Shown here piece by piece: positions 3,965 to 60,796 of a DNA stretch of 64,000 nucleotides. Position 1 is the stretch's first letter. Every line of letters begins with the position of its first letter. The notes under the pieces are model-generated. The model saw only the letters and a list, made by a program, of their open reading frames with translations, had not been told where the DNA came from and did no database searches. Source of the DNA: an uncultured Prolixibacteraceae bacterium. GTDB lineage: Bacteria > Bacteroidota > Bacteroidia > Bacteroidales > FEN-979. Made by a program: the position numbers and the translations under genes. The stretch spans positions 37,171 through 101,170 of the forward strand of contig CAZXQU010000001.1 in assembly GCA_964642545.1 (NCBI GenBank). Direction: 5' to 3'.

Positions 3965-6900
3965 TCATTCTTCCCCCATCTCGAACTTCCTGATAAAGTC
4001 ACGTTTCTTATGGTCGGTAGAGAGGGTATAGCTGTAGCCACGCCATGCCTTGTTTAGTCGTTTTTTTTCTTTCTTATTCAGCAGTGCCTCCTTGATTTTA
4101 TCATTCGAGTCAAAATCGGAAGAGATAAATCTCATCACATTATTTCGATAGTTGAAGAAGTACCAATCATTTGCAGATATCTCGAGATAGATCGTAAATT
4201 CATCTCCATTCCGCTTTCTGGTGAATTCGATCTTTCCATTGAGATAACGGTTTACCATGCCATCCAGAATAGAGCCAATACCAATGGCACCATCTGATAC
4301 AAACGAACGTGTCAATGTATCAAAGCTCATCTTCACATCGGCAATAATCATTGTCTTTGTCAGCTCCTCCGGGAATTTCCGGAACCTCCCTACAGTCTCG
4401 AGTTCTGATTTCAGTTTCTCTCTCTCTTTGTCTGGTATCAATTCATTAAAAACAAAATTAAATGGAGATTTGAACAGTTGGATCCCCGGAAGGTTAGTAG
4501 ATGTCATCTGTGTCCTGATATGCTCTGCAACTCTCTCCTCAAATGGAAAATCAAGGATCAAAGAAAGCCGGAGGGAGGCAGAATCCGGAAGAACATAATA
4601 ATCCATTGTTCCATAGCTCTCCATCTGCAACGGGCCCGAATTAAACCCAAGGTTGATCTTCCCCTCCGCACGCATCATGCAATTGTATGTATTAAGGGAT
4701 ACCTTTGCCCCTGCTGAAGCCAGATTACCATTGGTATCAGGCATTCCAGCCTGGAATGTAGAGATTGGAATCTGGTATTGCAAGATCCCTGAAGTGGAGA
4801 TCATAATCGTATCGCTGAAACTCCTCCGCGGAGTAAAAAATGCAGGATAGATAATGTTTTCTGCATTTGAATAGACCATGCCCAGCACCACCTTCTCAGA
4901 GTTCCTGTTCTGGATAGGGTCTGAGACCGGTAATTTTATATAGTCTGGATTGACCCTGGAAGAGAATTTCACCCAGTTGGTTCCCAGGTTATAACACTCA
5001 ACCGTTGGTTTGAAAGCGCCTGAAAAGGTCATAGCTTTGACAGGTGCGTCAAGTCTAATATTCCCTATAAAAGCGAATTCCGGACTAAGCATGAAGTCGG
5101 CGGATTCAGAGATTGTTCCCGTTCCCACAGTATTTCCTGAAGTATCAACAGAGATTTTATCGAAGAATATCTCCTGATGGCTTCCAGTCCTGTCAATGTA
5201 ATCGTAGATTCCCGATCCGCTGTATCGCTTTCTCCCAAGTATGTTTACTGAAGCATCGTAGAAACTATGTTCCCTTGATCTTGTATTCGCAATGATATTG
5301 GCATTTGTGAGCTGACTTATCTCAGCATTCTTCAGAATTTCAACTTTCCCGCTGTCGGGGTAAATTGCTGCATCCGCAACCTTTATGATCTTTACCTCTT
5401 CGGCATTGATGATATTCGTTCTGATATTGTAACGCGCCCTGAGAGCAAAGAACCGCAGGGAATCCTGTTTTGGATGAACCGACATGAATTCGGTTCCAGT
5501 ATAGCCCACATCGATCAGCTGCGCGAGGCTAAGGTTATCCGGAATCGCGTATCGTTGGTTCTCCTCGTTTGTCAAAACGATCTCTTCATTATCAATCATC
5601 CAGTCGAAACGGTCCATCGAACAGATATACTTGTTGATTGGGAACTCCATCTTGGAGATTCCGAGATTGGATCGGAACTCACCTCTTCGCTCTTCAAAAT
5701 CGAAATGAGCACGATAATTCTGTGTCGAAATCGCCAGTGTATTAAGATCATACGATTTTATCCTGAAGTCGGCAATCAGCGCATCAAAGGTATGTTGCTG
5801 AAAACTGAATCCCTTTGAATCCATCTCGGCATCTTCGATTTTCATCGTTCCCGAACCGCTTAGTCCGCCAGGAGTAAAGCCAAGGGTTCCATCAAAAAGC
5901 GATTGGTTGTTATACATTGCCATATCCCTGACAGTGGAGGTGATACTCATGGAGTCCTGGTAAGGCAGCCAGAACTCCTTCACGCTGTCGGCGTTTACCG
6001 ATGGGTACTCAACAGCTGCAATCTGTTCTGTAGCCTGGAACCCACGGGCAAGAGTTTGCATACTGTCTGGGAAAAAGAGGAAGTGATCAGATACTGAAGT
6101 GGAATTAAGGTAATAAAGCTGCCCATCAGCCTGCAAACCCTGGTTGCTGAGATCGACTTTTGAAACAAATGTACCTTTTCCTCCGTAGGCCGGATATCCG
6201 TTGGCATCTGTATATTTTTCAAAGCCGAGGGAGAAGTCTGGTCGAACTTTAAGTGGTTCAGGGATGTCAGGGAAGATTCCAGCGGAGATTAATTGTCCAT
6301 CAAACTTCAGGCTGTCGGTATCGATGTAATCCAGACTTTTCAAAATAAAGGGGAATACCTCAAAATAGAATCGTTCTTTATCATACACTCCGTTGTAAAT
6401 ATATGGCTTTCCCCAGTTGACTGTTGCTGTATCCTGATTTGTGAATATCGGGTATTCAGGAGAATGTTTTATTCCTGCTTTGTTCTCTGGATCATCAATC
6501 AAAAGGAATCCGCTCAGGTCGTTGAGAGCAGTCTGTACTTTCTTCATAGGAAAGCGCCCTGTCTTGGGATCAATCTTTTTACTGATTACATAGAATTCCA
6601 GGGTATCGACTTCAGGCAAATTAAGTCTGAATTTGTCGTAATCAAACGAGCAACTGTCGGCATAGAAATCAAAAAGACCAGCTTCAACCTTACCGGTAAA
6701 TTGAAAGTTGCGATTCTCCTTAAGGATCAGCTCCTGGTTTCGGGGCGCAACGTAAACATGCTGAGAGTCTGAAAGGAAGACACCAGGGATTCCCTGGATT
6801 TTCAAATCAAAGTTTTCGAGATTCAGTGTAGCGTTGCTCTTTCCTTCAACCTCCGACGTAAATACGATCTCGTCGTAGTCGGTCTTCTCATTTTTTGCAT

Positions 6901-8461
6901 TCACATAATGGATCAATTTATCCTTGACAACCGCTTTTTTATCATCCTGATCATAGATTAAAAAACCTTTGGCACTAAGCAGAAGCAACTGTGACTCAAC
7001 CTGGGCCGGAGGCATCCTCCAGAATGTCACCAACTCCCCCAGTTCAAACTCACGTGAGTTCCGCCTTTCGATGAACGTTTTGATGATCTGAAGAGGATTC
7101 AGCTCATCGATCCCCTGAAGCTTTTCGTAACGCCGGAGTGAAAAGTAATTACTGGATTCGAAGGTTGCTTTACTTTTGGTTCCGGGACCACGCATCGCCT
7201 CAAAATTGATCTTGGGCTCATTGGTTTTCCAGAACAGCGCTTCACAATATATCTCGATTTTATGATAAGTGTCAAACCACGGACTGATCAATGCAATCCG
7301 TTCATCTTTATTCAGCGAAAGCTCCTTCGTTTCATCCAGGTATTTAAATACCAATCCGGGATGATAAATCGAGTCAAGATCGTGGTGAATAGTTACCGAT
7401 GCATTGCTGGAGTTGATCCTGTCGGGGCGGATAATGAACGTTTTTGATCTTGCGGTTACGAACTCCTGGTCATCCCGTTTAAATACCAACATGGCATCCT
7501 GGTCATTCAGGCCAAATCCAACAACCTTTCTTCCCTCCATGGAGAATCCTCCCATGTAATCAATATTTTTAAAGATATTCTGGATTCCAATCAGTCCTTC
7601 ATAGGAGTAAAAGCGTGGATAGGAGGCTTTCTCTTCATCAACATCTGCCTGAATCTTATCGATGATACGACCGGTAAGCGGAGAGGGAAGGTAATCTATA
7701 TTGAAAAATTCGACCGAGTCGGCTTCATATTTTGAGAAGCGCATCTGAATCTGGTAGTTGCTAAGGTTAGCATATACCTTCCCCGGATCAAGTCCGGCCC
7801 GTTGCCAGTCGATTTTTCCTCCATACCCTTCCCACCTTGTTTCAATAGGGAAATAACGACCCTGCGTATTGAAAATGGTGAGGCTGTCTCTACTGGAAAA
7901 GCAGATGATATCAGTAGGACGGACCTCCACAATGGAGACTGAGTCATTGAGAAAACGGTAGTTAGGTGTTACTAGCTTCCAAGCTGTTGATGCCGACTTG
8001 TAAAGCATATCCTCCTCAAAAAGATGGATACTGAAATCGATGAAACTCAGAAAATGCCGGGTATATTTTTCTCCAGCCAGGGACTCAAGTACAGCCGACC
8101 AGTCGAAAAATTGCTGGCTGGAAAGACTCTTCTCACAAGTAAGGTTCAATACAACTAAATAGTTATAAAAATCGGGGAAAGCATGCATCCGTTTATTCAG
8201 CATTTTGTTGCATACCGAATAGATCGATTCTTTCTTTGAAAGATCAAAGTGACCCATCACCCAATGCTCTTTAAAGGGTGCCAAGGCTCCTTCAACTATT
8301 TTCTGGTCATTTTTGCTGAGTTTGGTGAAGAGTAGGTCCAGCTCGCTAATAAATTTGTCAGGATCTCCTGAAAAGCTCTTTAATTGTTGGCCATTCAATA
8401 CGAAACCGATCGCCGAAAGAAATAAGATAAAAACAGTTCTAAACGTAGTAGATCTCTTCAT
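3965..8461 (-). CDS. very large secreted protein of unknown function (1498 aa)
   Basis: Uninterrupted 4.5-kb ORF with an N-terminal signal peptide (MKRSTTFRTVFILFLSAIGFVLNGQ). Its ATG overlaps the prmA stop (ATGA at 8458-8461). I recognise no catalytic motif. Confidence 0.7.
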   Translation of the reverse strand: MKRSTTFRTVFILFLSAIGFVLNGQQLKSFSGDPDKFISELDLLFTKLSKNDQKIVEGALAPFKEHWVMGHFDLSKKESIYSVCNKMLNKRMHAFPDFYNYLVVLNLTCEKSLSSQQFFDWSAVLESLAGEKYTRHFLSFIDFSIHLFEEDMLYKSASTAWKLVTPNYRFLNDSVSIVEVRPTDIICFSSRDSLTIFNTQGRYFPIETRWEGYGGKIDWQRAGLDPGKVYANLSNYQIQMRFSKYEADSVEFFNIDYLPSPLTGRIIDKIQADVDEEKASYPRFYSYEGLIGIQNIFKNIDYMGGFSMEGRKVVGFGLNDQDAMLVFKRDDQEFVTARSKTFIIRPDRINSSNASVTIHHDLDSIYHPGLVFKYLDETKELSLNKDERIALISPWFDTYHKIEIYCEALFWKTNEPKINFEAMRGPGTKSKATFESSNYFSLRRYEKLQGIDELNPLQIIKTFIERRNSREFELGELVTFWRMPPAQVESQLLLLSAKGFLIYDQDDKKAVVKDKLIHYVNAKNEKTDYDEIVFTSEVEGKSNATLNLENFDLKIQGIPGVFLSDSQHVYVAPRNQELILKENRNFQFTGKVEAGLFDFYADSCSFDYDKFRLNLPEVDTLEFYVISKKIDPKTGRFPMKKVQTALNDLSGFLLIDDPENKAGIKHSPEYPIFTNQDTATVNWGKPYIYNGVYDKERFYFEVFPFILKSLDYIDTDSLKFDGQLISAGIFPDIPEPLKVRPDFSLGFEKYTDANGYPAYGGKGTFVSKVDLSNQGLQADGQLYYLNSTSVSDHFLFFPDSMQTLARGFQATEQIAAVEYPSVNADSVKEFWLPYQDSMSITSTVRDMAMYNNQSLFDGTLGFTPGGLSGSGTMKIEDAEMDSKGFSFQQHTFDALIADFRIKSYDLNTLAISTQNYRAHFDFEERRGEFRSNLGISKMEFPINKYICSMDRFDWMIDNEEIVLTNEENQRYAIPDNLSLAQLIDVGYTGTEFMSVHPKQDSLRFFALRARYNIRTNIINAEEVKIIKVADAAIYPDSGKVEILKNAEISQLTNANIIANTRSREHSFYDASVNILGRKRYSGSGIYDYIDRTGSHQEIFFDKISVDTSGNTVGTGTISESADFMLSPEFAFIGNIRLDAPVKAMTFSGAFKPTVECYNLGTNWVKFSSRVNPDYIKLPVSDPIQNRNSEKVVLGMVYSNAENIIYPAFFTPRRSFSDTIMISTSGILQYQIPISTFQAGMPDTNGNLASAGAKVSLNTYNCMMRAEGKINLGFNSGPLQMESYGTMDYYVLPDSASLRLSLILDFPFEERVAEHIRTQMTSTNLPGIQLFKSPFNFVFNELIPDKEREKLKSELETVGRFRKFPEELTKTMIIADVKMSFDTLTRSFVSDGAIGIGSILDGMVNRYLNGKIEFTRKRNGDEFTIYLEISANDWYFFNYRNNVMRFISSDFDSNDKIKEALLNKKEKKRLNKAWRGYSYTLSTDHKKRDFIRKFEMGEE

Positions 8462-9318
8462 CCATTGAATTTTGCAACCATCCAGTTGTTCTTAACCCGG
8501 GTTCCGGAGATTCTAAGTCCGTGCTTTCCTGCATAGGCTTCAACCGTAGGCAGATCTTCTGTATAAAACCCGCTTAGAAACAGCCCCCCCCCCTTTTTTA
8601 ATGCAGTTGCATAGGACGGAATCTGCTCGATCAAGGTATTTCGGTTGATATTTGCTAGTATCACGTCAAATTGTTCGAGTGGAATATCCGAAGCGTCTCC
8701 CCGAATAACGTCAATAGTACTTGTATTATTCTTTATCACATTCTCCAAGGCATTCTCAACAGCCCATTTATCATAATCGATCGCAACTACCCGGCCGGCC
8801 CCCATTTTGGAGGCCAGGATTGCCAGTACTCCGGTGCCGCAGCCCATATCAAGAACTGTTTTACCGATCACAACTTCATCCAGGAGGGATTCAATCATCA
8901 GGGAGGTCGTTTCATGATGGGCCGTGCCGAAAGACATCTTTGGTTCAATAACAATGTCAATTATGGATGCTGGATGCCGGATGCCGGATGCCGGATGAAA
9001 TGGAGCGCGGATATAGCATCTTCCAGCGACCAGAACCGGTTCATAAGAGCTTTCCCAGATCGCGTTCCAATTTTCTTCCGGCATCCTTGTAACACTCCAG
9101 AAAAGATCTTTCAGATTAGGATATTTATTCAGGACCTGATGAATTTCGCCTTCGTTAAAATCCATTTCCTTGATGTAGGCAAACAGTACTGTATCTTCTT
9201 CATTGAAACTATCAAATCCCACCTCCGACAGTTCAGCTATCAGAATGTCTGAATAGCCCTGAACAACAGGCTGAAATGCTATTTCAAGAAAAAGTGAGGA
9301 GGGTTGATGGCTGCCCAT
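8458..9318 (-). CDS. prmA: ribosomal protein L11 methyltransferase
   Basis: It has the SAM-binding motif DMGCGTGVLAI, preceded by PKMSFGTAHHETT, and a PrmA-like N-terminal domain. It contains an in-frame heptamer array (8965-8999). Confidence 0.9.
   Translation of the reverse strand: MGSHQPSSLFLEIAFQPVVQGYSDILIAELSEVGFDSFNEEDTVLFAYIKEMDFNEGEIHQVLNKYPNLKDLFWSVTRMPEENWNAIWESSYEPVLVAGRCYIRAPFHPASGIRHPASIIDIVIEPKMSFGTAHHETTSLMIESLLDEVVIGKTVLDMGCGTGVLAILASKMGAGRVVAIDYDKWAVENALENVIKNNTSTIDVIRGDASDIPLEQFDVILANINRNTLIEQIPSYATALKKGGGLFLSGFYTEDLPTVEAYAGKHGLRISGTRVKNNWMVAKFNG
8584..8599. repeat. homopolymer tract C10 T6 (G10 on the coding strand) inside prmA
   Basis: The plus strand reads cagCCCCCCCCCCTTTTTTaa. 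The coding strand reads tta aaa aag ggg ggg ggg ctg (LKKGGGL). Confidence 0.9.
8965..8999. repeat. heptamer array (GGATGCY) x5 inside prmA
   Basis: The units are ggatgct ggatgcc ggatgcc ggatgcc ggatgaa. On the coding strand they read in all three frames as HPASGIRHPAS. Confidence 0.95.
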
Positions 9319-12153: not shown

Positions 12154-12195
12154 GGTTAATAGATACTGGATAATGGATACTAGATACCAGCATCT
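12154..12195. repeat. degenerate heptamer array (RGATACT-like) x6 filling the permease/DoxX spacer
   Basis: The units are ggttaat agatact ggataat ggatact agatacc agcatct. The DoxX-gene stop (cta at 12194-12196) straddles the last unit. Confidence 0.8.
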
Positions 12196-16174: not shown

Positions 16175-16200
16175 AGAGCTGTTATATTATATTGTCATCA

Positions 16201-16264
16201 TTTCCTAATTTTCTAATTTCCTATTTTCCTAATTTCCTAATTTCCTAATTTCCTAATTTCGTAT
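16201..16264. repeat. octamer array (TTTCCTAA) x8 between def and the TPR lipoprotein gene
   Basis: The units are tttcctaa ttttctaa tttcctat, then tttcctaa x4, then tttcgtat, in unbroken 8-nt phase. The last unit runs into the def stop codon (16264-16266). Confidence 0.95.
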
Positions 16265-16839: not shown

Positions 16840-16867
16840 GGTTTCGTATTTCGTATTTCGTATTTCG
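16840..16867. repeat. heptamer array (TATTTCG) x4 filling the ruvX-def spacer
   Basis: The units are ggtttcg tatttcg tatttcg tatttcg. The whole 30-nt spacer between the def ATG (16839) and the ruvX stop (16870) is repeat. Confidence 0.95.
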
Positions 16868-16869
16868 TG

Positions 16870-17361: not shown

Positions 17362-18180
17362 ATGACAAAGGATATCAGATCTCTCATTGAGGCAGCCTGG
17401 AATGACCGGGAGATGCTGAAGCATGCGGATACACAACAGGTCATCAGGCTTGTCATCGATCTCCTTGACAAAGGGAAACTTCGGGTTGCAGAGTATACAG
17501 GGGAGGAATGGGTTACTTTCAAGTGGATAAAGAAAGCTGTTATCCTCTATTTCCTTATTCAGAAACTGGAAACTATCCAGGTGGATCCATTCGAATTCTT
17601 CGATAAAATTCCGTTAAAAAAAGATTATGGGAGGCTTGGTGTACGTGTTGTCCCTCCTGCAGTAGCTCGCTACGGCTCCTTCATCGCCGAGGGCGTAGTA
17701 ATGATGCCCTCCTATATTAATATTGGAGCTTACGTCGATAGCGGAACGATGGTTGACACTTGGGCAACCGTAGGTTCCTGCGCTCAGATAGGCAAAAACG
17801 TCCACCTCAGTGGAGGGGTTGGGATTGGTGGTGTTCTGGAACCTATTCAGGCAGCTCCCGTAATTGTGGAAGATGGTTGTTTTATCGGTTCACGCTCCAT
17901 AATTGTTGAGGGGGTTCGTATTGAACGGGAAGCGGTTTTGGGAGCCAATGTCGTTCTTACCTCCTCAACCCGGATCCTAGATGTATCGGGAAGTGAACCT
18001 GTTGAGAGGAGAGGATCTATTCCGGTGCGGTCAGTCGTGATACCCGGTTCTTATACAAAATCCTTCCCTGCCGGAGATTTCCAGGTAGCGTGTGCCCTGA
18101 TCATCGGGAAACGGAAGGCTTCGACTGACCTTAAAACATCGCTGAACCAGGCACTCAGAGAGTTCGACGTTCCGGTATGA
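17362..18180 (+). CDS. dapD: 2,3,4,5-tetrahydropyridine-2,6-dicarboxylate N-succinyltransferase
   Basis: 272 aa. The C-terminal half is a left-handed beta-helix of hexapeptide repeats (GAYVDSGTMVDTWATVGSCAQIGKNVHLSGGVGIGG...). The N-terminal helical domain is DapD-like. Confidence 0.85.
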   Translation: MTKDIRSLIEAAWNDREMLKHADTQQVIRLVIDLLDKGKLRVAEYTGEEWVTFKWIKKAVILYFLIQKLETIQVDPFEFFDKIPLKKDYGRLGVRVVPPAVARYGSFIAEGVVMMPSYINIGAYVDSGTMVDTWATVGSCAQIGKNVHLSGGVGIGGVLEPIQAAPVIVEDGCFIGSRSIIVEGVRIEREAVLGANVVLTSSTRILDVSGSEPVERRGSIPVRSVVIPGSYTKSFPAGDFQVACALIIGKRKASTDLKTSLNQALREFDVPV

Positions 18181-19151
18181 AAAAAATCTTGGTCATTCAA
18201 ACAGCCTCCATCGGAGATGTGATCCTGGCTACAGCTCTTCTGGAGAAGCTGCATCATTTCTATCCGGATGCCCGCATCGATTTCCTGGTAAAAAAAGACA
18301 TGCAATCCCTCTTCAACGGGCATCCATTTATTAACCGGTTGCTCATCTGGGATAAATCAGTAAAATATCGCAGTTTCTTCCGATTAATCAAGGACGTTCG
18401 ATCGGAACGATACGACTTTGCAATCAACATTCAGCGCTTCGCTTTAACCGGTATCCTGACTGCTCTTTCAGGTGCAAAAGCCACTATCGGATTCGATAAA
18501 AACCCCCTCTCATGGGCCTTCAGCAATAGGATACCGCATAAAGTTGGCAATGGGATTCATGAAACCCAACGCAATCAGAGGCTGATCGCTGAGATAACGG
18601 ATGAGAATGTGGAGAAGCCAAAGTTATATCCTGAGAAGATCCAGCATCCAGTATCAGGTATCTATTATACAATTTCCCCTGCATCCCTCTGGTTCACAAA
18701 ACAATATCCTGCCGAACGCTGGGCCGAACTGATCGGGCAGATGTCTGAGGAGGCAATGGTCTACTTGTTGGGATCGAAGGCAGATTTTGAACTCTGTGAA
18801 GAGATACGGGATACGGGATATGGGATACGCGGATCGCGAATCGTGAATCTCGCCGGCCAGCTTTCCCTCCTAGAATCAGCAGCCCTGATGCAGGGTGCGA
18901 GGATGAACTTTACCAACGATTCAGCACCAATGCATCTGGCTTCTGCTGTCAATGCCCCGGTTTCGGCAGTCTATTGTTCCACCACACCTGATTTTGGGTT
19001 TGGCCCCCTCTCCGATAATCGCGCGATTGTTGAGGTTCAGACGGAATTATCCTGCCGACCCTGTGGTTTACATGGTCGAACAAGTTGTCCGGAGGGCCAT
19101 TTCAGATGCGCTGTTGATATAAATATGGAAACCCTAAGATCCCGCCTTTGA
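18177..19151 (+). CDS. glycosyltransferase family 9 (heptosyltransferase-like)
   Basis: It has the N-terminus MKKILVIQTASIGDVILATALLEKL and the motif NDSAPMHLASA. Its ATG overlaps the dapD stop (ATGA). It contains an in-frame heptamer array (18801-18849). Confidence 0.8.
   Translation: MKKILVIQTASIGDVILATALLEKLHHFYPDARIDFLVKKDMQSLFNGHPFINRLLIWDKSVKYRSFFRLIKDVRSERYDFAINIQRFALTGILTALSGAKATIGFDKNPLSWAFSNRIPHKVGNGIHETQRNQRLIAEITDENVEKPKLYPEKIQHPVSGIYYTISPASLWFTKQYPAERWAELIGQMSEEAMVYLLGSKADFELCEEIRDTGYGIRGSRIVNLAGQLSLLESAALMQGARMNFTNDSAPMHLASAVNAPVSAVYCSTTPDFGFGPLSDNRAIVEVQTELSCRPCGLHGRTSCPEGHFRCAVDINMETLRSRL
18801..18849. repeat. morphing heptamer array x7 inside the GT9 gene
   Basis: The units are gagatac gggatac gggatat gggatac gcggatc gcgaatc gtgaatc. 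They encode EIRDTGYGIRGSRIVN in frame. Confidence 0.9.
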
Positions 19152-22235: not shown

Positions 22236-23081
22236 ATGAAACGACTTATAATCTATTTACTGCTCCTTGTCATTGTCGCAGCAGCCTGTACTGAACGGAT
22301 TGAGTTGAATCTGGATGAGACCTATACACGATTGGTGGTTGATGGTGACATATCGAATGATACGGGCAGCTACCAGGTTACCCTGAGCAAAACAGCCGAC
22401 TATTTCTACAACGAACCAGCTCCACGTGTTGTCAATGCTACCGTCAGTTTGAACAATGACTCAGATTCCTATCTCCTTCACGAAACTGAGCCAGGAATAT
22501 CCGGGATCTATGAGACCGATTCATCGTTTTATGGGATCATTGGAGAGACATATACCCTCGACATCGATCTGGATCAACCAATCGATAATGAGACCAATTA
22601 CACATCCTCGTGCAAGATGATGAATGTGGCCCGCCTTGATTCCATCCAGGTAGTATTTCAGACAGATTGGGGCCCTAAAGGCATCTGGGAGATCAGAGTT
22701 TTTGCCCAGGAACCCGGAGATGAAGTCAATTATTACATGTTCCGATACTACCGGAACGACACACTGATGAGCGATTCGATCTGGAAAGTAGAAATATCTG
22801 ATGATAAGTATATCAACGGCGGCTACATCAATGGACTTACAGCGATCTATATCAATAACGAAAATCCATGGGAGACATTTAAACCAGGCGATAAAGTAAC
22901 TCTCCAAATGTCGGGAATCACCAAAGAGTATTACGATTTTATTTACCAGGTGAAACTCTCGGGATTCAACATCCCTTTCTTTACCGGCCCTCCAGCCAAC
23001 GTTCAGGGCAATATAAGCAATGGGGGGATTGGGTTCTTCTCAGCTTATTCCAATACGTGGGGGAGTACGATTGTGAAATAG
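22236..23081 (+). CDS. DUF4249-like lipoprotein (TonB-dependent receptor partner)
   Basis: It has a lipoprotein signal (VAAAC) and lies 13 nt downstream of the TonB-dependent receptor. The family assignment is from the remembered TBDR+DUF4249 pairing and is not verified. Confidence 0.6.
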   Translation: MKRLIIYLLLLVIVAAACTERIELNLDETYTRLVVDGDISNDTGSYQVTLSKTADYFYNEPAPRVVNATVSLNNDSDSYLLHETEPGISGIYETDSSFYGIIGETYTLDIDLDQPIDNETNYTSSCKMMNVARLDSIQVVFQTDWGPKGIWEIRVFAQEPGDEVNYYMFRYYRNDTLMSDSIWKVEISDDKYINGGYINGLTAIYINNENPWETFKPGDKVTLQMSGITKEYYDFIYQVKLSGFNIPFFTGPPANVQGNISNGGIGFFSAYSNTWGSTIVK

Positions 23082-23112
23082 CGAAATAGCGAAATAGCGA
23101 AATAGCGAAAAT
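23073..23112. repeat. octamer array (GCGAAATA) x5 after the DUF4249 gene
   Basis: The units are gtgaaata, gcgaaata x3, gcgaaaat. The TAG stop codon (23079-23081) is formed across the unit 1/2 junction. Confidence 0.95.
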
Positions 23113-24519: not shown

Positions 24520-24556
24520 CCTACAGCCTAAAAGCCTAACAGCCTACAGCCTAATC
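24520..24556. repeat. 7/8-nt array (CCTACAG / CCTAACAG) x5 abutting the GT2 start codon
   Basis: The units are cctacag cctaaaag cctaacag cctacag cctaatc, followed immediately by the ATG at 24557. Confidence 0.9.
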
Positions 24557-27465: not shown

Positions 27466-27528
27466 CTGAAATACGAAAGATGAAATACGTATTTCCTAAT
27501 TTCCTAATTTCCTAATGACCAATGACCA
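27466..27528. repeat. composite repeat in the pyrK-pyrD spacer: TGAAATACG x2 (15 nt apart), ATTTCCTA x3, ATGACCA x2
   Basis: tgaaatacg occurs at 27466 and 27481. atttccta occurs three times at 27491-27514. atgacca occurs twice at 27515-27528. The second ATGACCA carries the pyrD start codon (27522). Confidence 0.9.
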
Positions 27529-28436
27529 ACCTTCAAGTAAATATCGCCGGACTCACCTTCAAAAATCCCGTTACCACGGCATCTGGCACATTCGGGTATG
27601 GAGATGAGTTCAGAGACTTCATGGATCTTGGTAAGATCGGAGGTATCTTTGTCAAAGCGGTAACTGGCTCCAACAGGGAGGGAAACGCCTATCCCCGTAT
27701 GGCTGAAACTCCGTCGGGGATGTTAAATTCGGTGGGTCTGCAAAACAAAGGCGTTGACCATTTCGTCAGAGAGATCTATCCCCGGATCAAAGATTTTGAC
27801 ACCCATATCATTGTCAATGTTTCAGGCTCCACACTAGAAGAATATGTGGAGGTAGCCGCCCGGATGAATGAACTGGAGAATGTATCTGCCATTGAGCTGA
27901 ACATTTCCTGCCCCAATGTCAAACAGGGCGGGATGGCTTTTGGAACCGTGCCGTCCATGTCGTCGGAAGTGACCCGGGCTGTGAGGGATGTCTACAAGGG
28001 GGTGCTGATGGTCAAACTTTCACCCAATGTCACCAGTATTATCGAAATCGCAAAGGCGGTGGCCGACGGTGGCGCAGATGTGTTGACACTCGTAAATACA
28101 CTCTTGGGAATGGCTATTGATGCCGATCGTCGTCGCCCTATCCTCTCCACTATTACAGGAGGACTCTCTGGTCCGGCCATCAAGCCTGTTGCCTTACGGA
28201 TGGTATGGCAGGTCCACAATGCTGTAAACCTGCCCGTAATTGGTCTTGGCGGTATCATGAACGCTACCGATGCCATTGAATTCATGCTAGCCGGCGCTTC
28301 TGCCATCCAGGTTGGAACTGCCAACTTCATCGATCCGGCAGTCTCCGTCAAAATTGTGGAAGGCATTGAAGCTTATATGCTGAAACACTGTATTACCGAC
28401 GTAAATGAGCTGATCGGTGGATTGCGGACTGATTAA
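27522..28436 (+). CDS. pyrD: dihydroorotate dehydrogenase 1B, catalytic subunit
   Basis: Motifs [14 protein letters not shown] (catalytic Cys loop), [10 protein letters not shown] and GLGGI are present. Confidence 0.92.
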
Positions 28437-33306: not shown

Positions 33307-33384
33307 ATTACGAATTACGAATTATGAATTATGAATTGAATATCAATGAATTGAAACCCGAAACCCGAAACCCGAAACTTGAAA
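33294..33384. repeat. heptamer-derived arrays spanning the whole GT4/GT spacer
   Basis: The units are gaatgag gaatgaa ttacgaa ttacgaa ttatgaa ttatgaa, then a degenerate bridge (ttgaatatcaatgaattgaaa), then cccgaaa x3 and cttgaaa. The upstream TGA (33304-33306) and the candidate TTG start (33379) both lie in units. Confidence 0.92.
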
Positions 33385-34530
33385 CTAACACTTCACATCA
33401 TAAGCTTTGACGTCCCGTTTCCTCCCAATTACGGGGGGGTGATCGATATCTATTACAAGATTCGGGCGCTCCATGAAGCCGGGGTAAATGTAATCCTGCA
33501 CTGTTTCCAGGATCAAAGGGATCCAAATCCTGAACTTAAGAAACTATGTACCGAGGTATGTTACTATCCGCGTCAAAAGAGCATCCTGAATCTCATGTCC
33601 CTGCGACCTTACATCGTTGCCAGCCGGAATTCAGAATCCCTGCGAAAGCGGCTATTGCAGGACGAGTATCCAATCCTGTTTGAAGGACTGCATACCTGCA
33701 ATATCCTGAATGATCGAGCTTTTCGGGACCGTAAAAAGATTTACAGGGAGAGTAACATTGAACACGACTATTATTATCACCTCTATAAGGCGACAGGAAA
33801 TATCCTTGACAAAGTGTTTTTCCTGGCCGAGAGCATGAAATTGCGCTGGTTCCAAAGGATCCTTAAACATGCTGACCTGATGCTGGCAGTCTCAAAAGCA
33901 GACGAACAGTACCTGAAATTCAAGTTTCCACAAAAGGATATCCGGTATTTGCCATCATTTCACCTGGATGACAAAATAAGTTCAAAACCTGGCCGGAGTT
34001 CCTACCTGCTTTACCAGGGCAAATTAAGTGTTCCGGAAAATATTCGTGCCGCAGAATATATCATCAATCATATCTACACTGACTCTCTTCCTGATCTGAT
34101 TATCGCCGGGATGAATCCTCCTGGGCATCTCATTAAACTAATTGAAAAGCATCCCAACATTCGACTGGAGATCAACCCCGATGACGACAGAATGTTTGAA
34201 CTCATTCGGGATGCACAGATCAACCTCCTGGTGACATCGCAACCAACCGGATTGAAGCTGAAACTATTAAATGCGCTGTTTCATGGCCGGCACTGCCTGG
34301 TGAATCCCGAAATGCTTGTGGGGACAGGGTTGAATGATGTTTGCACAACAGCAAAAACGCCTCAACAATTCCGTGACGAGATTGGCACCCTTTTCTTGAA
34401 AGATTTCGACGCTGGGATGATAGCCCACCGTGAGGCTATAATCATGGAAAAATACTCCAATAAAAAAAATTGTATAAGCCTAACGGATATATTAACTTTG
34501 TTCTATGAAAAAAATACTCGTTCCGGTTGA
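33379..34530 (+). CDS. glycosyltransferase (GT-B fold, GT4-like)
   Basis: The N-terminus HIISFDVPFPPNYGGVIDIYYKIRAL and a C-terminal GT-B half are present. The TTG start at 33379 is taken from the ORF track and lies in the last repeat unit, so the start is uncertain. Confidence 0.6.
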   Translation: MKLTLHIISFDVPFPPNYGGVIDIYYKIRALHEAGVNVILHCFQDQRDPNPELKKLCTEVCYYPRQKSILNLMSLRPYIVASRNSESLRKRLLQDEYPILFEGLHTCNILNDRAFRDRKKIYRESNIEHDYYYHLYKATGNILDKVFFLAESMKLRWFQRILKHADLMLAVSKADEQYLKFKFPQKDIRYLPSFHLDDKISSKPGRSSYLLYQGKLSVPENIRAAEYIINHIYTDSLPDLIIAGMNPPGHLIKLIEKHPNIRLEINPDDDRMFELIRDAQINLLVTSQPTGLKLKLLNALFHGRHCLVNPEMLVGTGLNDVCTTAKTPQQFRDEIGTLFLKDFDAGMIAHREAIIMEKYSNKKNCISLTDILTLFYEKNTRSG

Positions 34531-52158: not shown

Positions 52159-52207
52159 GGTGATAGGCGTGATGAAATCGTAATTCATAATTCGTAATTC
52201 GTAATTG
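52159..52207. repeat. morphing heptamer array x7 (core CGTAATT x4 at 52179-52206) upstream of miaA
   Basis: The units are ggtgata ggcgtga tgaaatc gtaattc ataattc gtaattc gtaattg, in constant 7-nt phase. The array ends 5 nt before the miaA ATG at 52213. Confidence 0.85.
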
Positions 52208-52212
52208 ATAAA

Positions 52213-57782: not shown

Positions 57783-57803
57783 CAGAAAAACCGAAAGCTG
57801 GAT

Positions 57804-57859
57804 CCCAGATCCCAGATCCCAGATCCCAAATCTCTAATCCCTAATCCCTAATCCCTGAT
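57804..57859. repeat. morphing heptamer array x8 (CCCAGAT to CCCTAAT) in the OsmC leader
   Basis: The units are cccagat x3, cccaaat, ctctaat, ccctaat x2, ccctgat. The array lies between the -7 box (57775-57782) and the ATG at 57865. Confidence 0.95.
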
Positions 57860-57864
57860 TCTTT

Positions 57865-58260
57865 ATGTCAATTGAAGTAAAATTTCCAGGCGGAGTGAAA
57901 GTAGACGCCCTTATCGAACCATTTGTAATTTCCACAGACCAGCCTGTCAGAGGAGGCGGAGAGGGTACAGCCCCTGCTCCTTTCTCACTATTTCTTGCAT
58001 CACTTGCAACCTGTGCCGGCTATTATGTAAAAGCTTTCTGTGACTCACGTCAGCTCTTCTCGGAAGGGGTTTCCCTTACAATGGATACAATATATGATCC
58101 ATTGAACAAAATGATTGGAAAGATCATTATTAAGATTATCGTTCCAATGGATTTTCCAGAGAAATATGATAATGCCCTGATCAATGCAGCCAATGTGTGT
58201 GCTGTGAAACGGCATCTGTCTGACCAGATTGAGGTCGAAACCCTTGTTGTAAGAGAATAA
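57865..58260 (+). CDS. OsmC family protein (peroxiredoxin-like)
   Basis: 131 aa. It has an OsmC-like pattern with two cysteines (LASLATCAGYY ... NVCAVKRHL). Confidence 0.75.
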   Translation: MSIEVKFPGGVKVDALIEPFVISTDQPVRGGGEGTAPAPFSLFLASLATCAGYYVKAFCDSRQLFSEGVSLTMDTIYDPLNKMIGKIIIKIIVPMDFPEKYDNALINAANVCAVKRHLSDQIEVETLVVRE

Positions 58261-58288
58261 GGCACAGGGCACAAGGCACAGGGCACAG
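58261..58288. repeat. heptamer array (GGCACAG) x4 starting immediately after the OsmC stop codon
   Basis: The units are ggcacag ggcacaa ggcacag ggcacag. The array is the left flank of the PLP-enzyme remnant. Confidence 0.92.
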
Positions 58289-58413
58289 GAGAATGCCATG
58301 AAAGTTGCCGAATACCTAGAAGCACATCCCAAAGTAGCATGGGTTAAGTACCCCGGGCATAACGTGGGATTCTGTGTTTTGGCTGTATCCCTTGGGGGAA
58401 TAGAGACCCTGAT
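58289..58413 (+). pseudogene. remnant of a Cys/Met-metabolism PLP enzyme (cystathionine gamma-synthase / methionine gamma-lyase / OAH sulfhydrylase family)
   Basis: The translation ENAMKVAEYLEAHPKVAWVKYPG...FCVLAVSLGGIETLIQYPAS matches two conserved C-terminal blocks of the family (..NA.KVAEFL..HP.V..V.YPGL and F..A.SLGG.ESLI.HPASMTH). About 40 aa between the blocks are missing, as are the whole N-terminal ~300 aa and the last ~40 aa. The remnant is flanked by heptamer arrays on both sides. Confidence 0.6.
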
Positions 58414-58448
58414 CCAGTATCCAGCATCCAGCATCTGGCATCCAGCAT
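58414..58448. repeat. heptamer array (CCAGCAT) x5, right flank of the PLP-enzyme remnant
   Basis: The units are ccagtat ccagcat ccagcat ctggcat ccagcat. They read as YPASSIWHPAS in the remnant frame. Confidence 0.92.
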
Positions 58449-58495
58449 CAAAAATATCGCGTATATTTGTCCGTTTGATACGTAAACTGATTCGG

Positions 58496-60796
58496 ATGAT
58501 CCGCCAGCTGAAGATACTTATATCCTTTCTGGTCATATTAATCACACTGTTTCCTTCTCCTGGTTTCTCCCAGAAGGTAGCCCTTGTGCTTTCGGGAGGC
58601 GGAGCACGCGGGGCAGCCCATATCGGGGTAATCAGGGCACTCGAAGAGAACCAGATTCCGATCAACTATATAGTTGGTACTTCTATAGGTGCCATCGTTG
58701 GAGCTCTGTACGCCATTGGTTACACTCCTGATGAGATCGAGCAACTGATGAGCTCTCCTGAATTTTCCAATTGGGCATCCGGCTCAATTGACGAAAAGTA
58801 CCGTTATTATTTCAGGAAAGATGATCCTACTCCCTCCTGGGTATCCCTTGATTTCAATCCCAAAAAGAAATTAAGTACAGTTATTCCAACCAACCTGATC
58901 AATCCATATGAGATTGATTTTGAGTTCATGCGCCTGCTGGGACCTGCAGCAGCGGCAGCCTGTTATAATTTCGATAACCTGATGGTCCCATTCCGGTGTG
59001 TTTTATCAGATATTGATTCCACACAACCATTGGTAATGAGAGGGGGGAATCTCAGTACAGCAGTTCGGGGATCCATGTCTATTCCTTTGATTTACAATCC
59101 TTTACGATATAATGATAAATTACTTTTCGATGGTGGCATGTACAACAATTTCCCGGCAAATGTTGCACAGGAGGACTTTCATCCGGATGTTATCATTGGA
59201 TCAAGGGTGGCCCAGCGTTATAGCAAAGCTGACCCCGACGATGTGATCAGTCAGCTTATGATCATGTTGATGGAACGACAGAATGACACCATTACCTACC
59301 CAAACTCAGTGATGATCGTGCCTTCAATTCCCAAAATCAACCTGCTTGATTTTTCACAGACTGAAATTTTGGCTGATAGTGGCTATTTGGCGGCTATCTC
59401 AATGATCCCTGAGATTCGAAAGCTGGTAGCAGACACCATTACTCCCGAAGTTCTCCTCAGGAAGAGGACTATCTTCAAGGCCAAAGAACCTGAGATGTTA
59501 TTTGATTCTATCGTTGTAACAGGACTCACAAAAGCGCAGGCTCAGTATGTCCAAAAAATATTGAAGCACAACCAAAAGACTGTTACCATCAATGAATTAA
59601 AAAAGGCCTATTTCAGATTCATTGATGAAGGTTTTGTCAAGACGATTTTCCCTACTACAAGGTACAACCCACAAACTGGATATTATGACCTTTACCTGGA
59701 TATTCAAAAAGCTCCAGGTTTCAACGTGCAATTTGGCGGAAACCTCTCCCTGGGGACCAGCAATGAAGGATTTCTTCAGCTTCGGTACAAATATCTTTGG
59801 AACCATGCGATCAGGGTTCTGGCGAACGGATATTTTGGCAGATTCTATAGTTCTGCTAAGGTTGGCGGGCGGATTGACTTCACATCAAAACTACCCTGGT
59901 ATCTGGAACTTTACTACACATATAACAATTACAACTATTTCAATAATACGACCTATTTCTTTGATGACCTGACACCCTCAAATATCAAGCAATGGGAGAG
60001 TTTTACTTCCCTAAAAGGGGGTATCCCTATTACGAACAAAGGGAAACTTACCCTGGGATTAATCAATGCGATTACCTCTTCTGATTATTACCAAACCAAT
60101 GATTTTTCGCGACTCGATACAGCTGATCAAACCAAATTTAATTACTTCACTCCCAGGATCTGTTTTGAGCTGAATAGTCTGAATCGAAAACAATACGCCA
60201 ATGCCGGAGCCCGTCTTAGCATTTCACTGACATATGTGAACGGGAGGGAGATTCTCATTCCCGGGTCCCAGTCAGCCAACAAATCAGAACAAACCGTGTA
60301 TCATGAATGGCTTGAGATCAAAGGAATTTACGATAATTATTTTGAAACCATAGGTCCGCTCAAACTTGGCTTTTTTGGAGAAGTTTGCATAACCAACCAG
60401 CCATTTTTCTTAAACTACACATCCTCTATTATGTATTCACCAGCATTCCAACCGCTTCCGGAAATGCAGTCTTTATTCCTGCCTCAATTCAGGGCCTCTA
60501 GTTACCTGGCAGGTGGATTGAAAGCCATTTTAACAATCTATAAAAAGCTGGAAATCAGAGCCGAAGGTTATATATTTCAACCATATCAACAAATCCTGCA
60601 AAGCCCCATTGATTATACCGCGTACCATGGGCCAATCCTGAGTGACCGATCATACATTGCAGCAGCAACGCTCGTTTACCACACGTTTCTTGGGCCATTG
60701 AGTGCCGGCTTTAGTTTCTATGACAAATTACAAGATCCCTTTACCTTCAATCTCAATTTCGGGTATATCATCTTTAATCGTAGTGCCTTACCATAA
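58496..60796 (+). CDS. patatin-like phospholipase fused to an Omp85/BamA-like beta-barrel (PlpD-like)
   Basis: The signal peptide starts at ATG 58496 (MIRQLKILISFLVILITLF). Patatin motifs are present: GGGARG, GTSIG (GxSxG) and FDGG (catalytic Asp). The C-terminal ~450 aa are aromatic-rich and barrel-like. The ORF-track start at 58298 would fuse the pseudogene remnant onto it. Confidence 0.82.
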   Translation: MIRQLKILISFLVILITLFPSPGFSQKVALVLSGGGARGAAHIGVIRALEENQIPINYIVGTSIGAIVGALYAIGYTPDEIEQLMSSPEFSNWASGSIDEKYRYYFRKDDPTPSWVSLDFNPKKKLSTVIPTNLINPYEIDFEFMRLLGPAAAAACYNFDNLMVPFRCVLSDIDSTQPLVMRGGNLSTAVRGSMSIPLIYNPLRYNDKLLFDGGMYNNFPANVAQEDFHPDVIIGSRVAQRYSKADPDDVISQLMIMLMERQNDTITYPNSVMIVPSIPKINLLDFSQTEILADSGYLAAISMIPEIRKLVADTITPEVLLRKRTIFKAKEPEMLFDSIVVTGLTKAQAQYVQKILKHNQKTVTINELKKAYFRFIDEGFVKTIFPTTRYNPQTGYYDLYLDIQKAPGFNVQFGGNLSLGTSNEGFLQLRYKYLWNHAIRVLANGYFGRFYSSAKVGGRIDFTSKLPWYLELYYTYNNYNYFNNTTYFFDDLTPSNIKQWESFTSLKGGIPITNKGKLTLGLINAITSSDYYQTNDFSRLDTADQTKFNYFTPRICFELNSLNRKQYANAGARLSISLTYVNGREILIPGSQSANKSEQTVYHEWLEIKGIYDNYFETIGPLKLGFFGEVCITNQPFFLNYTSSIMYSPAFQPLPEMQSLFLPQFRASSYLAGGLKAILTIYKKLEIRAEGYIFQPYQQILQSPIDYTAYHGPILSDRSYIAAATLVYHTFLGPLSAGFSFYDKLQDPFTFNLNFGYIIFNRSALP

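Follow-up and report, generated by a model that had tools for sequence, protein, structure and literature searches.

Long simple sequence repeats (LSSRs), as described by Mrazek et al. (2007) and recounted in PMC4679880, have units of 5-11 nt and include a heptanucleotide class, whose arrays are strongly over-represented genome-wide, comprise many different units and are mostly intergenic; where the unit is not a multiple of three, the same survey gives them as largely excluded from coding sequence. Between relatives, LSSRs and cyanobacterial heptamer arrays are reported there to change length in 7-nt steps, for which slippage with a polymerase footprint of approximately 7 nt has been proposed (PMC4679880). 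Repeats of the heptamer TAACTGA are found in Beggiatoaceae, Cyanobacteria and five Bacteroidetes (MacGregor 2015, PMC4679880). Most of these arrays end a few nucleotides upstream of start codons, and a minority lie within ORFs in a stop-free orientation and are translated as 7-aa repeats of LSVISYQ (PMC4679880). One such array sits in a variable surface loop, in a protein similar to RNA polymerase beta-prime; the in-ORF cases are mostly hypothetical proteins or protein ends, and their conservation across species is not shown in that paper (PMC4679880).

Phase-variable loci are by definition variable from strain to strain, with tracts that mutate at 100 to 10,000 times the basal rate (PMC11868660). 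Rickettsia palindromic elements and MITEs of approximately 100-150 nt are inserted in frame, as selfish or neutral DNA, at structurally permissive sites of unrelated housekeeping proteins (review PMC10969869).

The locus described here is a tandem heptamer within prmA, in a 64 kb stretch of DNA from an uncultured Prolixibacteraceae bacterium that was analysed as a whole and is referred to as the window. It is likely to be an old in-frame heptanucleotide microsatellite, (CATCCRG)5, one of the genome-wide arrays with 7- or 8-nt units, that was seeded on an anchor of conserved codons and became fixed and frame-locked in a permissive, poorly ordered loop of PrmA.

The array and its host gene

The prmA gene (8458..9318, minus strand) was recognized from the ORF list, PF06325 and Foldseek as encoding a predicted ribosomal protein L11 methyltransferase of 286 aa, and its stop codon overlaps the start of a downstream 1498-aa ORF by 4 nt. 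Its product matches the Pfam family PF06325 (PrmA) over residues 40-281 (E=9.6e-46, 157 bits vs a cut-off of 22) and T. thermophilus PrmA 1ufk (E=4e-25). The AF2 model, with an overall pLDDT of 87.9, has T. thermophilus PrmA 3cjt, 2nxe and 2nxn as its best PDB matches (Foldseek, E ~1e-20 to 1e-21, TM 0.62-0.81) and consists of an N-terminal L11-binding domain, a linker helix, a small sheet and a class I methyltransferase domain, the two-domain PrmA architecture described in a review (PMC3347575). The catalytic and SAM-binding motifs GTxHHxTT and D-x-G-C-G-T-G are present, and H134, H135, T137, T138, D157, G159, C160, G161 and T162 are among the invariant columns of a 34-sequence alignment (A1). 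Judged by sequence and model, the product is a member of the PrmA family, and trimethylation of L11 is its predicted activity.

The array, as delimited by sequence, TRF and self-identity, occupies 35 nt (8963..8997, minus strand) at 37-41% of the CDS. On the coding strand its five units are CATCCGG (8997-8991), CATCCGG (8990-8984), CATCCGG (8983-8977), CATCCAG (8976-8970) and CATCCAT (8969-8963), which encode H108 P A S G I R H P A S I119; with the preceding codon, TTT CAT CCG GCA TCC GGC ATC CGG CAT CCA GCA TCC ATA is read as F H P A S G I R H P A S I. The initial annotation had counted five GGATGCY units between 8965 and 8999. Five is the right number in the coding-strand register, whereas in the plus-strand register (8965-8997, GGATGCT GGATGCC GGATGCC GGATGCC GGATG) there are four full units and a GGATG stub, and the end at 8999 takes in two bases of the Phe107 codon. 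TRF reports period 7, 4.7 copies, 96% matches and a score of 59. In the register of the invariant His108 codon, period-7 self-identity is 26/28, and the chance expectation in 64 kb is 4e-9 windows with at least 26/28. Unit 1 is the source of the invariant His108 codon and of Pro109, CAT (the His108 codon) plus the CC of Pro109 constituting the 'anchor' unit.

The array peptide, HPASGIRHPASI, is situated between the invariant RAPFH and IEPKMSFGTAHHETT blocks, a placement proposed at the outset and borne out by the 34-sequence alignment; the 7-aa period of the peptide, its reading in all three frames and the rule that only multiples of three units keep the frame agree with the arithmetic. The first of the flanking blocks, R104-A-P-F-H108 (8995..9009, minus strand), forms the end of strand E101-104 according to alignment A1 and the secondary structure of the model, and its F107 and H108 do not vary among the 34 PrmAs. 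On the downstream side of the array, strand E120-123 of the model (8950-8961, minus strand) comes directly ahead of the conserved block I124-EPKMSFGTAHHETT-T138 (8905..8949, minus strand), a catalytic-domain motif in the alignment and the model. An assembly artefact was ruled out by two independent assemblies of the same species (L081 and L082), which have 0/861 mismatches to the window in prmA, together with orthologous arrays in other species.

The array is one of many in the window, where 20 tandem arrays score at least 40 (vs 1.2 in shuffles); 18 of the 20 have a period of 7, 8 or 14, and no period-7 or period-8 array with this score was found in 30 Markov shuffles. Strict arrays in the window have period 7 (five loci) or period 8 (two loci), with none of periods 4-6 or 9-12. 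The sequence CATCCRGCATCC, with at most one mismatch, has 11 matches in the window vs 0.82 expected. Most of the arrays are intergenic and just upstream of start codons, the intergenic ones being placed 0-8 nt from the start; other in-frame arrays are present in a GT9 gene of the window. The flanks in relatives likewise carry arrays of the period-7/8 class. An orthologous array in the MauE/permease spacer varies in unit and in copy number between the same species (9.1, 6.1, 5.6 and 3.9 copies), whereas unit-step variation of copy number among relatives is absent for the prmA array (five units in six species).

Age and length stability in relatives

Five units in the same register are present in at least six species (the window, L083-86, L087, L088, L089 and L090), among which PrmA identity is 61-80% and prmA differs from that of the window at 20-36% of nucleotides. 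Period-7 DNA identity of the array is kept at 21-26 of 28 across these species, although flanking synonymous sites are near saturation. In a quick NJ tree of 34 sequences, a good many of which derive from MAGs, the insert-bearing clade has the array-type peptide scattered over its whole extent, and the array-free P0005 is nested within it. The five-unit array is probably ancestral to the clade, and on its placement in this tree the P0005 lineage has lost it. The idea, considered at the outset, that orthologues lacking any DNA repeat carry the same peptide is not borne out: no repeat-free orthologue has it, the array-free L091 having a different peptide (PPATAS) at the site.

The initial annotation had envisaged that arrays invade or expand inside essential housekeeping genes. 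Invasion as a recent event is contradicted by the sharing of register and unit count among at least six species, and the word essential does not fit prmA, mutants of which are viable and without phenotype in E. coli (review PMC3347575). That a mobile or horizontally transferred repeat cassette entered the prmA of this genome recently, as real mobile-element insertions at exactly this site in two relatives (L174 and L175) and another occurrence of the prmA heptamer family in the window (58412-58449) might suggest, is extremely unlikely. Orthologous arrays agree in position, register and unit number across six species; the array of the window is without terminal inverted repeats, hairpin potential or target duplication; and the palindromic element of L174 and L175 was not found in the window. 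The orthologous arrays have largely refuted the recent-insertion reading already.

Length stability bears on another explanation, that PrmA is switched on and off when the tract slips by one or two units, producing heritable, reversible heterogeneity in L11 methylation. Only three-unit changes keep the frame, the genome makes heptamer length changes elsewhere (3.9 to 9.1 copies between species in the orthologous intergenic array), and tolerance of prmA loss in E. coli implies that OFF states could survive. However, the copy number is five in all six array-bearing species, prmA DNA is identical in the two same-species assemblies, and approximately ten contigs encode an identical 286-aa protein, while nine contigs that carry the identical neighbour gene are in matching size classes. 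In a search of 5.8 billion protein clusters, no in-frame length variant or C-terminal fragment with more than 80% identity, and no allele at that level besides the exact sequence, is among the matches listed. A metagenome scan for close relatives and copy-number variants returned at least 599 rows, and relatives among the matches listed have at most 54% identity. The length-stability data consist of assembled consensus sequences and exact-protein-identity look-ups, which are blind to minor or frameshifted alleles, and at this consensus level the two assemblies and the protein look-ups contain no ON or OFF length alleles at the array.

The character of the tract also counts against toggling: it is short (4.7 copies), imperfect and mid-gene in a housekeeping modification enzyme, at a distance from the usual placement of contingency loci at the 5' end of the CDS or in the promoter of a surface, restriction-modification or similar gene. 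Even the much longer compound array of one relative (P0004, 46 residues) has no length variation among four alleles and 16 contigs. Such a switch is therefore very improbable, and the frameshift switch or hazard suggested initially has no evidence behind it, with five copies in all six species and identical prmA DNA in two assemblies of one species. The prmA array does not reveal a new regulatory switch.

A permissive loop and a conserved DNA repeat

The AlphaFold models place the array in a lower-confidence loop between two strands, namely a hairpin between strands 101-104 and 120-123 of a small three-stranded sheet ahead of the Rossmann fold. In the AF2 model of the prmA product, pLDDT is 68 for residues 111-120, vs 88 for residues 101-110 and more than 90 for the catalytic domain. 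The earlier description of this segment as a short variable connector before the methyltransferase domain is upheld by alignment and models insofar as it is length-variable, insertion-tolerant and just ahead of the fold; rather than being the interdomain linker, however, it forms a hairpin loop within the small sheet that borders the catalytic domain. In the same columns of the 34-sequence alignment, the connector has 10-12 residues in outgroup PrmAs vs 11-57 in the array clade, and relatives have 0 to 46 extra residues in the loop, derived from other heptamer or octamer arrays and from palindromic elements.

Unrelated repeats have expanded the loop in P0004 and P0009. The larger, 46-residue insert of P0004 is predicted to be disordered, with a pLDDT below 50 while the rest of the model exceeds 90, and four of the six variable columns among the four P0004 alleles fall within the 50-aa insert. 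A palindromic element takes the place of the array peptide in P0011. In L174 and L175, a 69-nt double-hairpin element is inserted in frame at the prmA loop, and a further copy is located at L175:2731. The same palindromic element follows array unit 1 in two lineages that belong to separate subclades of the quick NJ tree. Relative to array-free orthologues, the array connector has a net gain of 4 aa (12 nt), a multiple of neither 7 nor 21 nt, so the origin of the array is not reconstructable as a simple gain of units; an origin by three added units (+7 aa) is ruled out by the same 4-aa difference. One loop of a housekeeping protein repeatedly gathers three kinds of in-frame repetitive DNA, a history that bears on the origin of low-complexity 'expansion segments' in bacterial proteins and on the annotation of odd protein inserts in MAGs.

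Within the array, pS is 0.23 vs 0.73 elsewhere in the gene, a threefold lower synonymous divergence, and pN/pS is higher (0.62 vs 0.29), from which it follows that the DNA repeat persists, not the peptide. Mean pairwise identity at third codon positions among the six species is 0.69 in the array vs 0.45 gene-wide, which places the array at rank 1-2 of 272 windows. Positions 2-4 of the unit (ATC) are the same in 30 of 30 units. Variation falls mainly on position 6, which in the anchor unit is the silent third base of Pro109, and neighbouring units have its state in common: A-A-A-A in L088, G-G-G-G-G in L087 and G-G-G-A-A in the window. Codon bias was considered as a cause of third-position conservation and rejected because usage is too even (Ala GCA 29%, Ser TCC 21%). 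Such a signature, in which synonymous divergence is depressed and amino-acid constraint relaxed, is unusual.

This signature is the reverse of what peptide-level purifying selection leaves, and it makes improbable the view that the HPASGIRHPAS loop is selected as protein (for instance as an L11 contact or to tune domain motion), the DNA repeat being merely its historical origin. A recognizable version of the peptide is kept across a clade spanning 57-80% identity, and the loop is next to the sheet through which the mobile interdomain helix is connected with the catalytic domain, as such a role might predict. On the other hand, its residues vary freely (GIRHP, GIQDQ, DIRHP, RIQDP, GIQHL), model confidence in the loop is low, and while P0005 has lost the loop, P0011 has a palindromic element in its place, and unrelated repeats have enlarged it in P0004 and P0009.

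A cis-acting DNA or mRNA element, bound by a factor or structured (for example as a long-range helix) and affecting prmA or the overlapping 1498-aa gene, would agree with the threefold fall in synonymous divergence and with the position of the array as the most conserved third-position window of the gene. A possible partner exists: 8986-9000, which comprises the Phe107 codon and the first 1.7 array units, is 93% complementary over 15 nt to 9072..9086 (minus strand), the codons (T)R-M-P-E-E (AGG ATG CCG GAA GAA) located 71 nt upstream, which may be a quasi-palindrome partner or a seed of the array, and the resulting helix is used in the MFE fold. Nevertheless, the fold of the 168-nt region is unexceptional (z=-1.56, equalled by 18 of 200 shuffles), the array by itself has no folding advantage over shuffles (z=+0.59), and the RNAalifold covariation term is +0.96, the pairs of the helix being either invariant or, in L088, broken, with no compensatory change there. 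A selected RNA structure in or around the array was ruled out on these grounds, folding being no better than that of shuffles and covariation being absent. No Rfam family was found in the whole window and no promoter- or terminator-like site at the array, and P0005 and P0011 dispense with the array. Such an element is, overall, quite unlikely.

Proposed history and comparison with described systems

On the reading preferred here, an old microsatellite locked in frame, the array would have originated when replication slipped or switched templates in a lineage with a tendency to 7-nt slippage. Its seed would have been the CAT-CC supplied by the invariant codons of His108 and Pro109, perhaps aided by the inverted CCGGATGCCGG within the R-M-P-E codons upstream. 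Because seven and three have no common factor, gaining or losing one or two units would shift the frame and be removed by selection, so that the array would be locked at five units, whereas orthologous intergenic arrays would drift freely in copy number. This frame constraint is the likely reason why copy number is fixed in prmA and variable in the intergenic array. Intra-array correction would keep the units alike, each unit position would occupy codon positions 1, 2 and 3 in turn from unit to unit, and the invariant residues would hold unit 1 in place. Unbiased homogenisation by itself does not reduce between-species divergence. In an array homogenised under these constraints, no position would be truly silent, which would explain the threefold synonymous deficit; alternatively, the low synonymous divergence could be due to local hypomutability or to a function at the level of DNA or RNA. 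The peptide encoded by the array is probably a neutral or nearly neutral spacer.

It is unlikely, although several observations fit, that a dedicated process makes, homogenises and positions the heptamer and octamer arrays of this lineage, or that a factor binds them, with the prmA array serving as a functional DNA site. The synonymous deficit, the preference for periods 7 and 8, the placement near start codons and the palindromic element after unit 1 in two lineages all accord with this possibility, under which the array could be a landing pad that attracts arrays and palindromic elements, or a cis element on the transcript of prmA and the 1498-aa gene. As an old frame-locked microsatellite, the array is instead a natural example of the survival, within a conserved enzyme, of a repeat with a unit length not divisible by three. 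Survival calls for a unit free of stops, a loop that is disordered and a host gene that can be dispensed with; the reading frame then freezes the length of the array, while intergenic arrays of the same genome keep changing.

The prmA array resembles the SSR contingency loci of Haemophilus, Neisseria and Campylobacter (PMC11868660) in being a tract inside a reading frame with a unit that is not a multiple of three. It differs from them in that it has no copy-number polymorphism, is short, imperfect and mid-gene, belongs to a housekeeping enzyme and is conserved in length across species. As with Rickettsia palindromic elements, repetitive DNA is tolerated in frame, and relatives carry a palindromic element at the very site of the array; the array of the window, in contrast, is a 35-nt tandem microsatellite that is not dispersed and has no hairpin potential. 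An RPE-like structure is seen only in the unrelated element of L174 and L175, and no internal inverted repeat was found within the prmA array.

Similarity to the TAACTGA system lies in the intergenic heptamer arrays of the window, which end just upstream of start codons, and in the translation of the prmA array within a loop. TAACTGA doublets themselves do not exceed chance in the window, with one match containing two mismatches vs 0.59 expected. Unlike that system, the unit in prmA is CATCCRG, and the genome draws on many unrelated units without favouring any one heptamer. With LSSRs, as far as they are described in PMC4679880, the window shares head-to-tail heptamers, a genome-wide excess of one period class and a mostly intergenic location, but the prmA array is set apart from them by its position in the middle of a gene for a conserved enzyme, its frame-locked length of five units and its depressed synonymous divergence.

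A heptamer array read in frame within prmA

The plus strand at 8965-8997 reads GGATGCT GGATGCC GGATGCC GGATGCC GGATG, an array of period 7 (4.7 copies, 96% matches, Tandem Repeats Finder score 59) that is spanned by a single long ORF of 286 aa, 8458..9318 on the minus strand. This ORF is prmA, encoding ribosomal protein L11 methyltransferase: it matches Pfam PF06325 (E=9.6e-46) and T. thermophilus PrmA (E=4e-25), and the best fold matches of its AlphaFold model are PrmA crystal structures. The description in the initial annotation is corrected in that the gene lies on the minus strand, and the "five GGATGCY units" hold in the coding-strand register, where the units from the His108 codon (8997 to 8963) are CATCCGG three times, CATCCAG and CATCCAT, whereas the plus-strand register gives four full units plus a stub. 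The codons TTT CAT CCG GCA TCC GGC ATC CGG CAT CCA GCA TCC ATA encode F H P A S G I R H P A S I. The in-frame array is real: its period-7 self-identity is 26/28, an equally periodic stretch is expected by chance 4e-9 times per 64 kb, no array of period 7 or 8 appeared among 30 Markov shuffles of the window, and two independently made assemblies of this organism differ at 0/861 prmA positions.

Alignment of 34 PrmA sequences confirmed that the array lies between two conserved blocks, the invariant ..RAPFH and IEPKMSFGTAHHETT; in the same columns more distant Bacteroidota PrmAs have a connector of 10-12 residues, and T. thermophilus PrmA has five residues fewer than the window PrmA. In the AlphaFold model (pLDDT 87.9), residues 108-119 run between strands 101-104 and 120-123, with a block confidence of 68 at the array, 88 ahead of it and >90 in the catalytic domain. 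Published work on PrmA (PMC3347575) describes a small three-stranded sheet as the link between the interdomain helix and the class I methyltransferase fold, and the array is modelled as a hairpin loop of this sheet; its assignment to an interdomain linker was rejected on the basis of the model strands and this published architecture. Tolerance of insertions by the loop, as originally proposed, is borne out by the varying connector lengths of relatives and by other in-frame repeat inserts at the site. The host gene had also been called essential, but E. coli prmA mutants are viable and without phenotype (PMC3347575), and therefore it is not.

An ORF of 1498 aa (3965-8461, minus strand) with no Pfam match overlaps the prmA stop codon by 4 nt. 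In nearly all relatives (L083, L085, L087, L090, L172, L173 and L175), the same gene of ~1500 aa lies next after prmA; its product is a conserved, uncharacterised large protein, apparently co-transcribed with prmA.

Age and fixed length of the array

The proteins nearest to the window PrmA belong to a clade of uncultured Bacteroidia, one of them the 'Bacteroidales bacterium' MAG GCA_014860625.1, in which PrmA is 282 to 332 aa long, with the entire difference located at the array site. Comparison of DNA from eleven relatives found the five-unit array, in identical register, in five species besides that of the window. Their coding strands read CATCCGG CATCCGG TATCCAG GATCAAG CATCCCG (L083-86, PrmA 80% identical to that of the window), CATCCGG CATCCGA CATCCGG CATCCGG TATCGGT (L087, 71%), CATCCAG CATCCAG GATCCAG GATCCAG CATCTTG (L088, 65%), CATCCGG CATCCGG CATCCAG CATCTAG CATCCAA (L089, 62%) and GATCCGG CATCCGG CATCCGG CATCAGG CATCTGT (L090, 61-63%). 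Period-7 self-identity is 21-24/28 in these five species and 11/28 in L091, which has no array and encodes PPATAS at the site; the array peptide was not found without a DNA repeat among the relatives. In a quick neighbour-joining tree from which the insert columns were removed, the insert-bearing PrmAs form a monophyletic clade, with the array-type peptide scattered over all of its branches and the array-free PrmA of L091 (P0005) nested within it. The array is therefore old and was lost secondarily in P0005, and a recent invasion is contradicted by this tree and by the five units shared in register by six species.

The frameshift hazard or switch suggested in the initial annotation finds no support in assembled sequences: array copy number is five in 6/6 array-bearing species, and prmA DNA is identical in both same-species assemblies. 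The identical 286-aa PrmA is encoded on about ten contigs, an independent look-up via the identical neighbouring DUF155 gene returned nine contigs of the same size classes, and a search of 5.8 billion protein clusters found no PrmA variants between 100% and 80% identity.

Conservation of the repeat and turnover of the loop

Among the six array-bearing species, mean pairwise identity at third codon positions is 0.69 in the array versus 0.45 gene-wide, so that the array ranks first or second among 272 sliding windows. By Nei-Gojobori counts, pS is 0.23 in the array and 0.73 in the rest of prmA, pN is 0.14 and 0.215, and pN/pS is 0.62 and 0.29, respectively. Codon usage, considered as a cause, was rejected since it is nearly even; these values together therefore indicate that conservation applies to the DNA repeat rather than to the peptide. 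Unit positions 2-4 (ATC) are invariant across 30/30 units, and variation is greatest at position 6, the silent third base of the Pro109 codon in unit 1. Adjacent units agree at position 6 (A-A-A-A in L088, G-G-G-G-G in L087, G-G-G-A-A in the window), a probable signature of unit-to-unit correction. Unit 1, held by the invariant His-Pro, would serve as the anchor of the array, and homogenisation would leave no truly silent site in it because every unit position is read in three codon phases.

Conservation through a function of the array as DNA or RNA is improbable. A 15-nt, 93% inverted match does link the start of the array (8986-9000) to the upstream R-M-P-E codons (9072-9086; AGG ATG CCG GAA), which correspond, in reverse complement, to 1.7 array units and at which most clade members have kept CGG ATG CCG. 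Against a function, shuffled sequences fold as well as the region (z=-1.56; array alone, z=+0.59), the RNA helix is without covariation and its pairs are broken in L088, and neither an Rfam family in the window nor a promoter or terminator at the array was found. A different role for the inverted match may be that of a quasi-palindrome, serving as a template in the seeding of the motif.

Other repeats have entered the same loop. The prmA genes of two relatives, L172 (332 aa) and L173 (328 aa), contain in-frame strings of differing heptamers (AGCCATG, AGGGTCG, TGGGTCA, CACAAGG and others) together with one octamer, (AGTCATCC)x4, also in frame. Both inserts also possess CATTGCGAG...GAAGC(A)-type stretches, encoding HCEARSDAA and SLRAKRSK, which look like fragments of a third short repeat-element type translated in frame. 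The insert of P0004, the L172 protein, is predicted to be disordered (pLDDT <50 at residues 126-157) within an otherwise confident fold, and 4/6 variable columns among four P0004 alleles, each of 332 aa, fall within it. In L174 and L175, which belong to separate subclades of the quick neighbour-joining tree, a G/C-rich double-hairpin palindromic element of ~69 nt (CCCCTCCCC..GGGAGGGG, then CCCCC TTCA GGGGG) is inserted in frame directly after the first array unit (L174:3140-3210; L175:3320-3392), with a second L175 copy at L175:2731 and none in the window. This element, which may target heptamer arrays, replaces most of the array in L174 for a net gain of 48 nt over L088; L174 and L088 are ~98% identical outside the site and differ in essence by this replacement alone, and therefore turnover can be recent. 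Insert lengths modulo 7 aa fall into uneven classes (8, 7, 6, 3, 1, 1 and 0, kinship ignored), a hint that lengths may change in 21-nt steps.

Arrays elsewhere and relation to known systems

The window contains 20 non-redundant arrays with scores of at least 40, versus 1.2 in shuffles; 18 of the 20 have periods of 7, 8 or 14, and strict arrays are limited to periods 7 and 8. Eighty distant Bacteroidota loci average 7.8 arrays per 64 kb, 2.6 of them with these three periods. Most window arrays fill a short spacer and stop 0-8 nt before a start codon, such as the heptamer and octamer arrays of unrelated units at 12157-12186, 16842-16868, 23075-23110, 24523-24554, 27491-27529, 33351-33385, 52178-52211, 57801-57856 and 58259-58289. 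In a phylum largely without Shine-Dalgarno sites, they may shape 5' leaders. The octamer ATTTCCTA is present at two unlinked intergenic loci, 16200-16260 (7.6 copies) and 27491-27516 (3.2 copies), and therefore unit sequences are not wholly idiosyncratic. The orthologous MauE/permease spacer has arrays in every relative, ending at the permease start in L083, 1 nt ahead in L088 and 8 nt ahead in L090; because their consensus units and copy numbers differ, intergenic arrays evolve in concert and change length, in contrast to the frame-locked coding array of prmA. Between the permease and TIM genes, four relatives, but not the window, possess a small gene of the 23S rRNA intervening-sequence protein family PF05635 (insertions at L088:1284-1827, L172:833-1222, L173:1581-2155 and L174:1105-1648); its flanking arrays have 9-11-nt units that are approximate reverse complements of each other (ATTGCCATC and GCAATGATGT), and gene and flanks look like a small mobile cassette.

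A GT9 glycosyltransferase ORF (18177..19151, plus strand; Pfam Glyco_transf_9) contains two further in-frame heptamer arrays: ATCCAGC ATCCAGT ATCAGGT ATCTATT at 18639-18668, encoding KIQHPVSGIYY, and GATACGG x4 plus a decayed continuation at 18803-18849, encoding EIRDTGYGIRGSRI. A match to Cys_Met_Meta_PP positions 260-279 (E=2.9e-6) covers the first 20 residues of a patatin-like ORF (58298..60796), and 58298-58450 looks like the remnant of a Cys/Met-PLP enzyme gene fused upstream. An (ATCCAGC)x5 array (58412-58449) lies on the ..LIQYPASSIWHPAS stretch (..HPAS motif) of this putative remnant, which suggests that the ATCCAGC heptamer has a natural seed of 1.7 units in HPAS codons (CAT CCA GCA TCC).

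According to the summary of Mrazek 2007 in PMC4679880, no class of long simple sequence repeat is commoner in many bacteria than heptanucleotide arrays, and units with a length not divisible by three are largely kept out of genes. TAACTGA arrays adjoin start codons in Beggiatoaceae, Cyanobacteria and a few Bacteroidetes, and a minority are translated within ORFs, one of them in an RNA polymerase beta-prime-like surface loop (MacGregor 2015, PMC4679880); the intergenic arrays of the window resemble those of Beggiatoaceae in their position upstream of start codons. Rickettsia palindromic elements are the classic case of selfish repeats tolerated in frame (PMC10969869). Heptamer arrays in bacteria, their occasional translation and in-frame repeat tolerance are thus already known; what the prmA array adds is its long conservation without change of length, its deficit of synonymous change, and a loop that behaves as a hot spot. 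The prmA tract is short, imperfect and mid-gene, unlike contingency loci, whose definition rests on hypermutable tracts and on variability among strains (PMC11868660).
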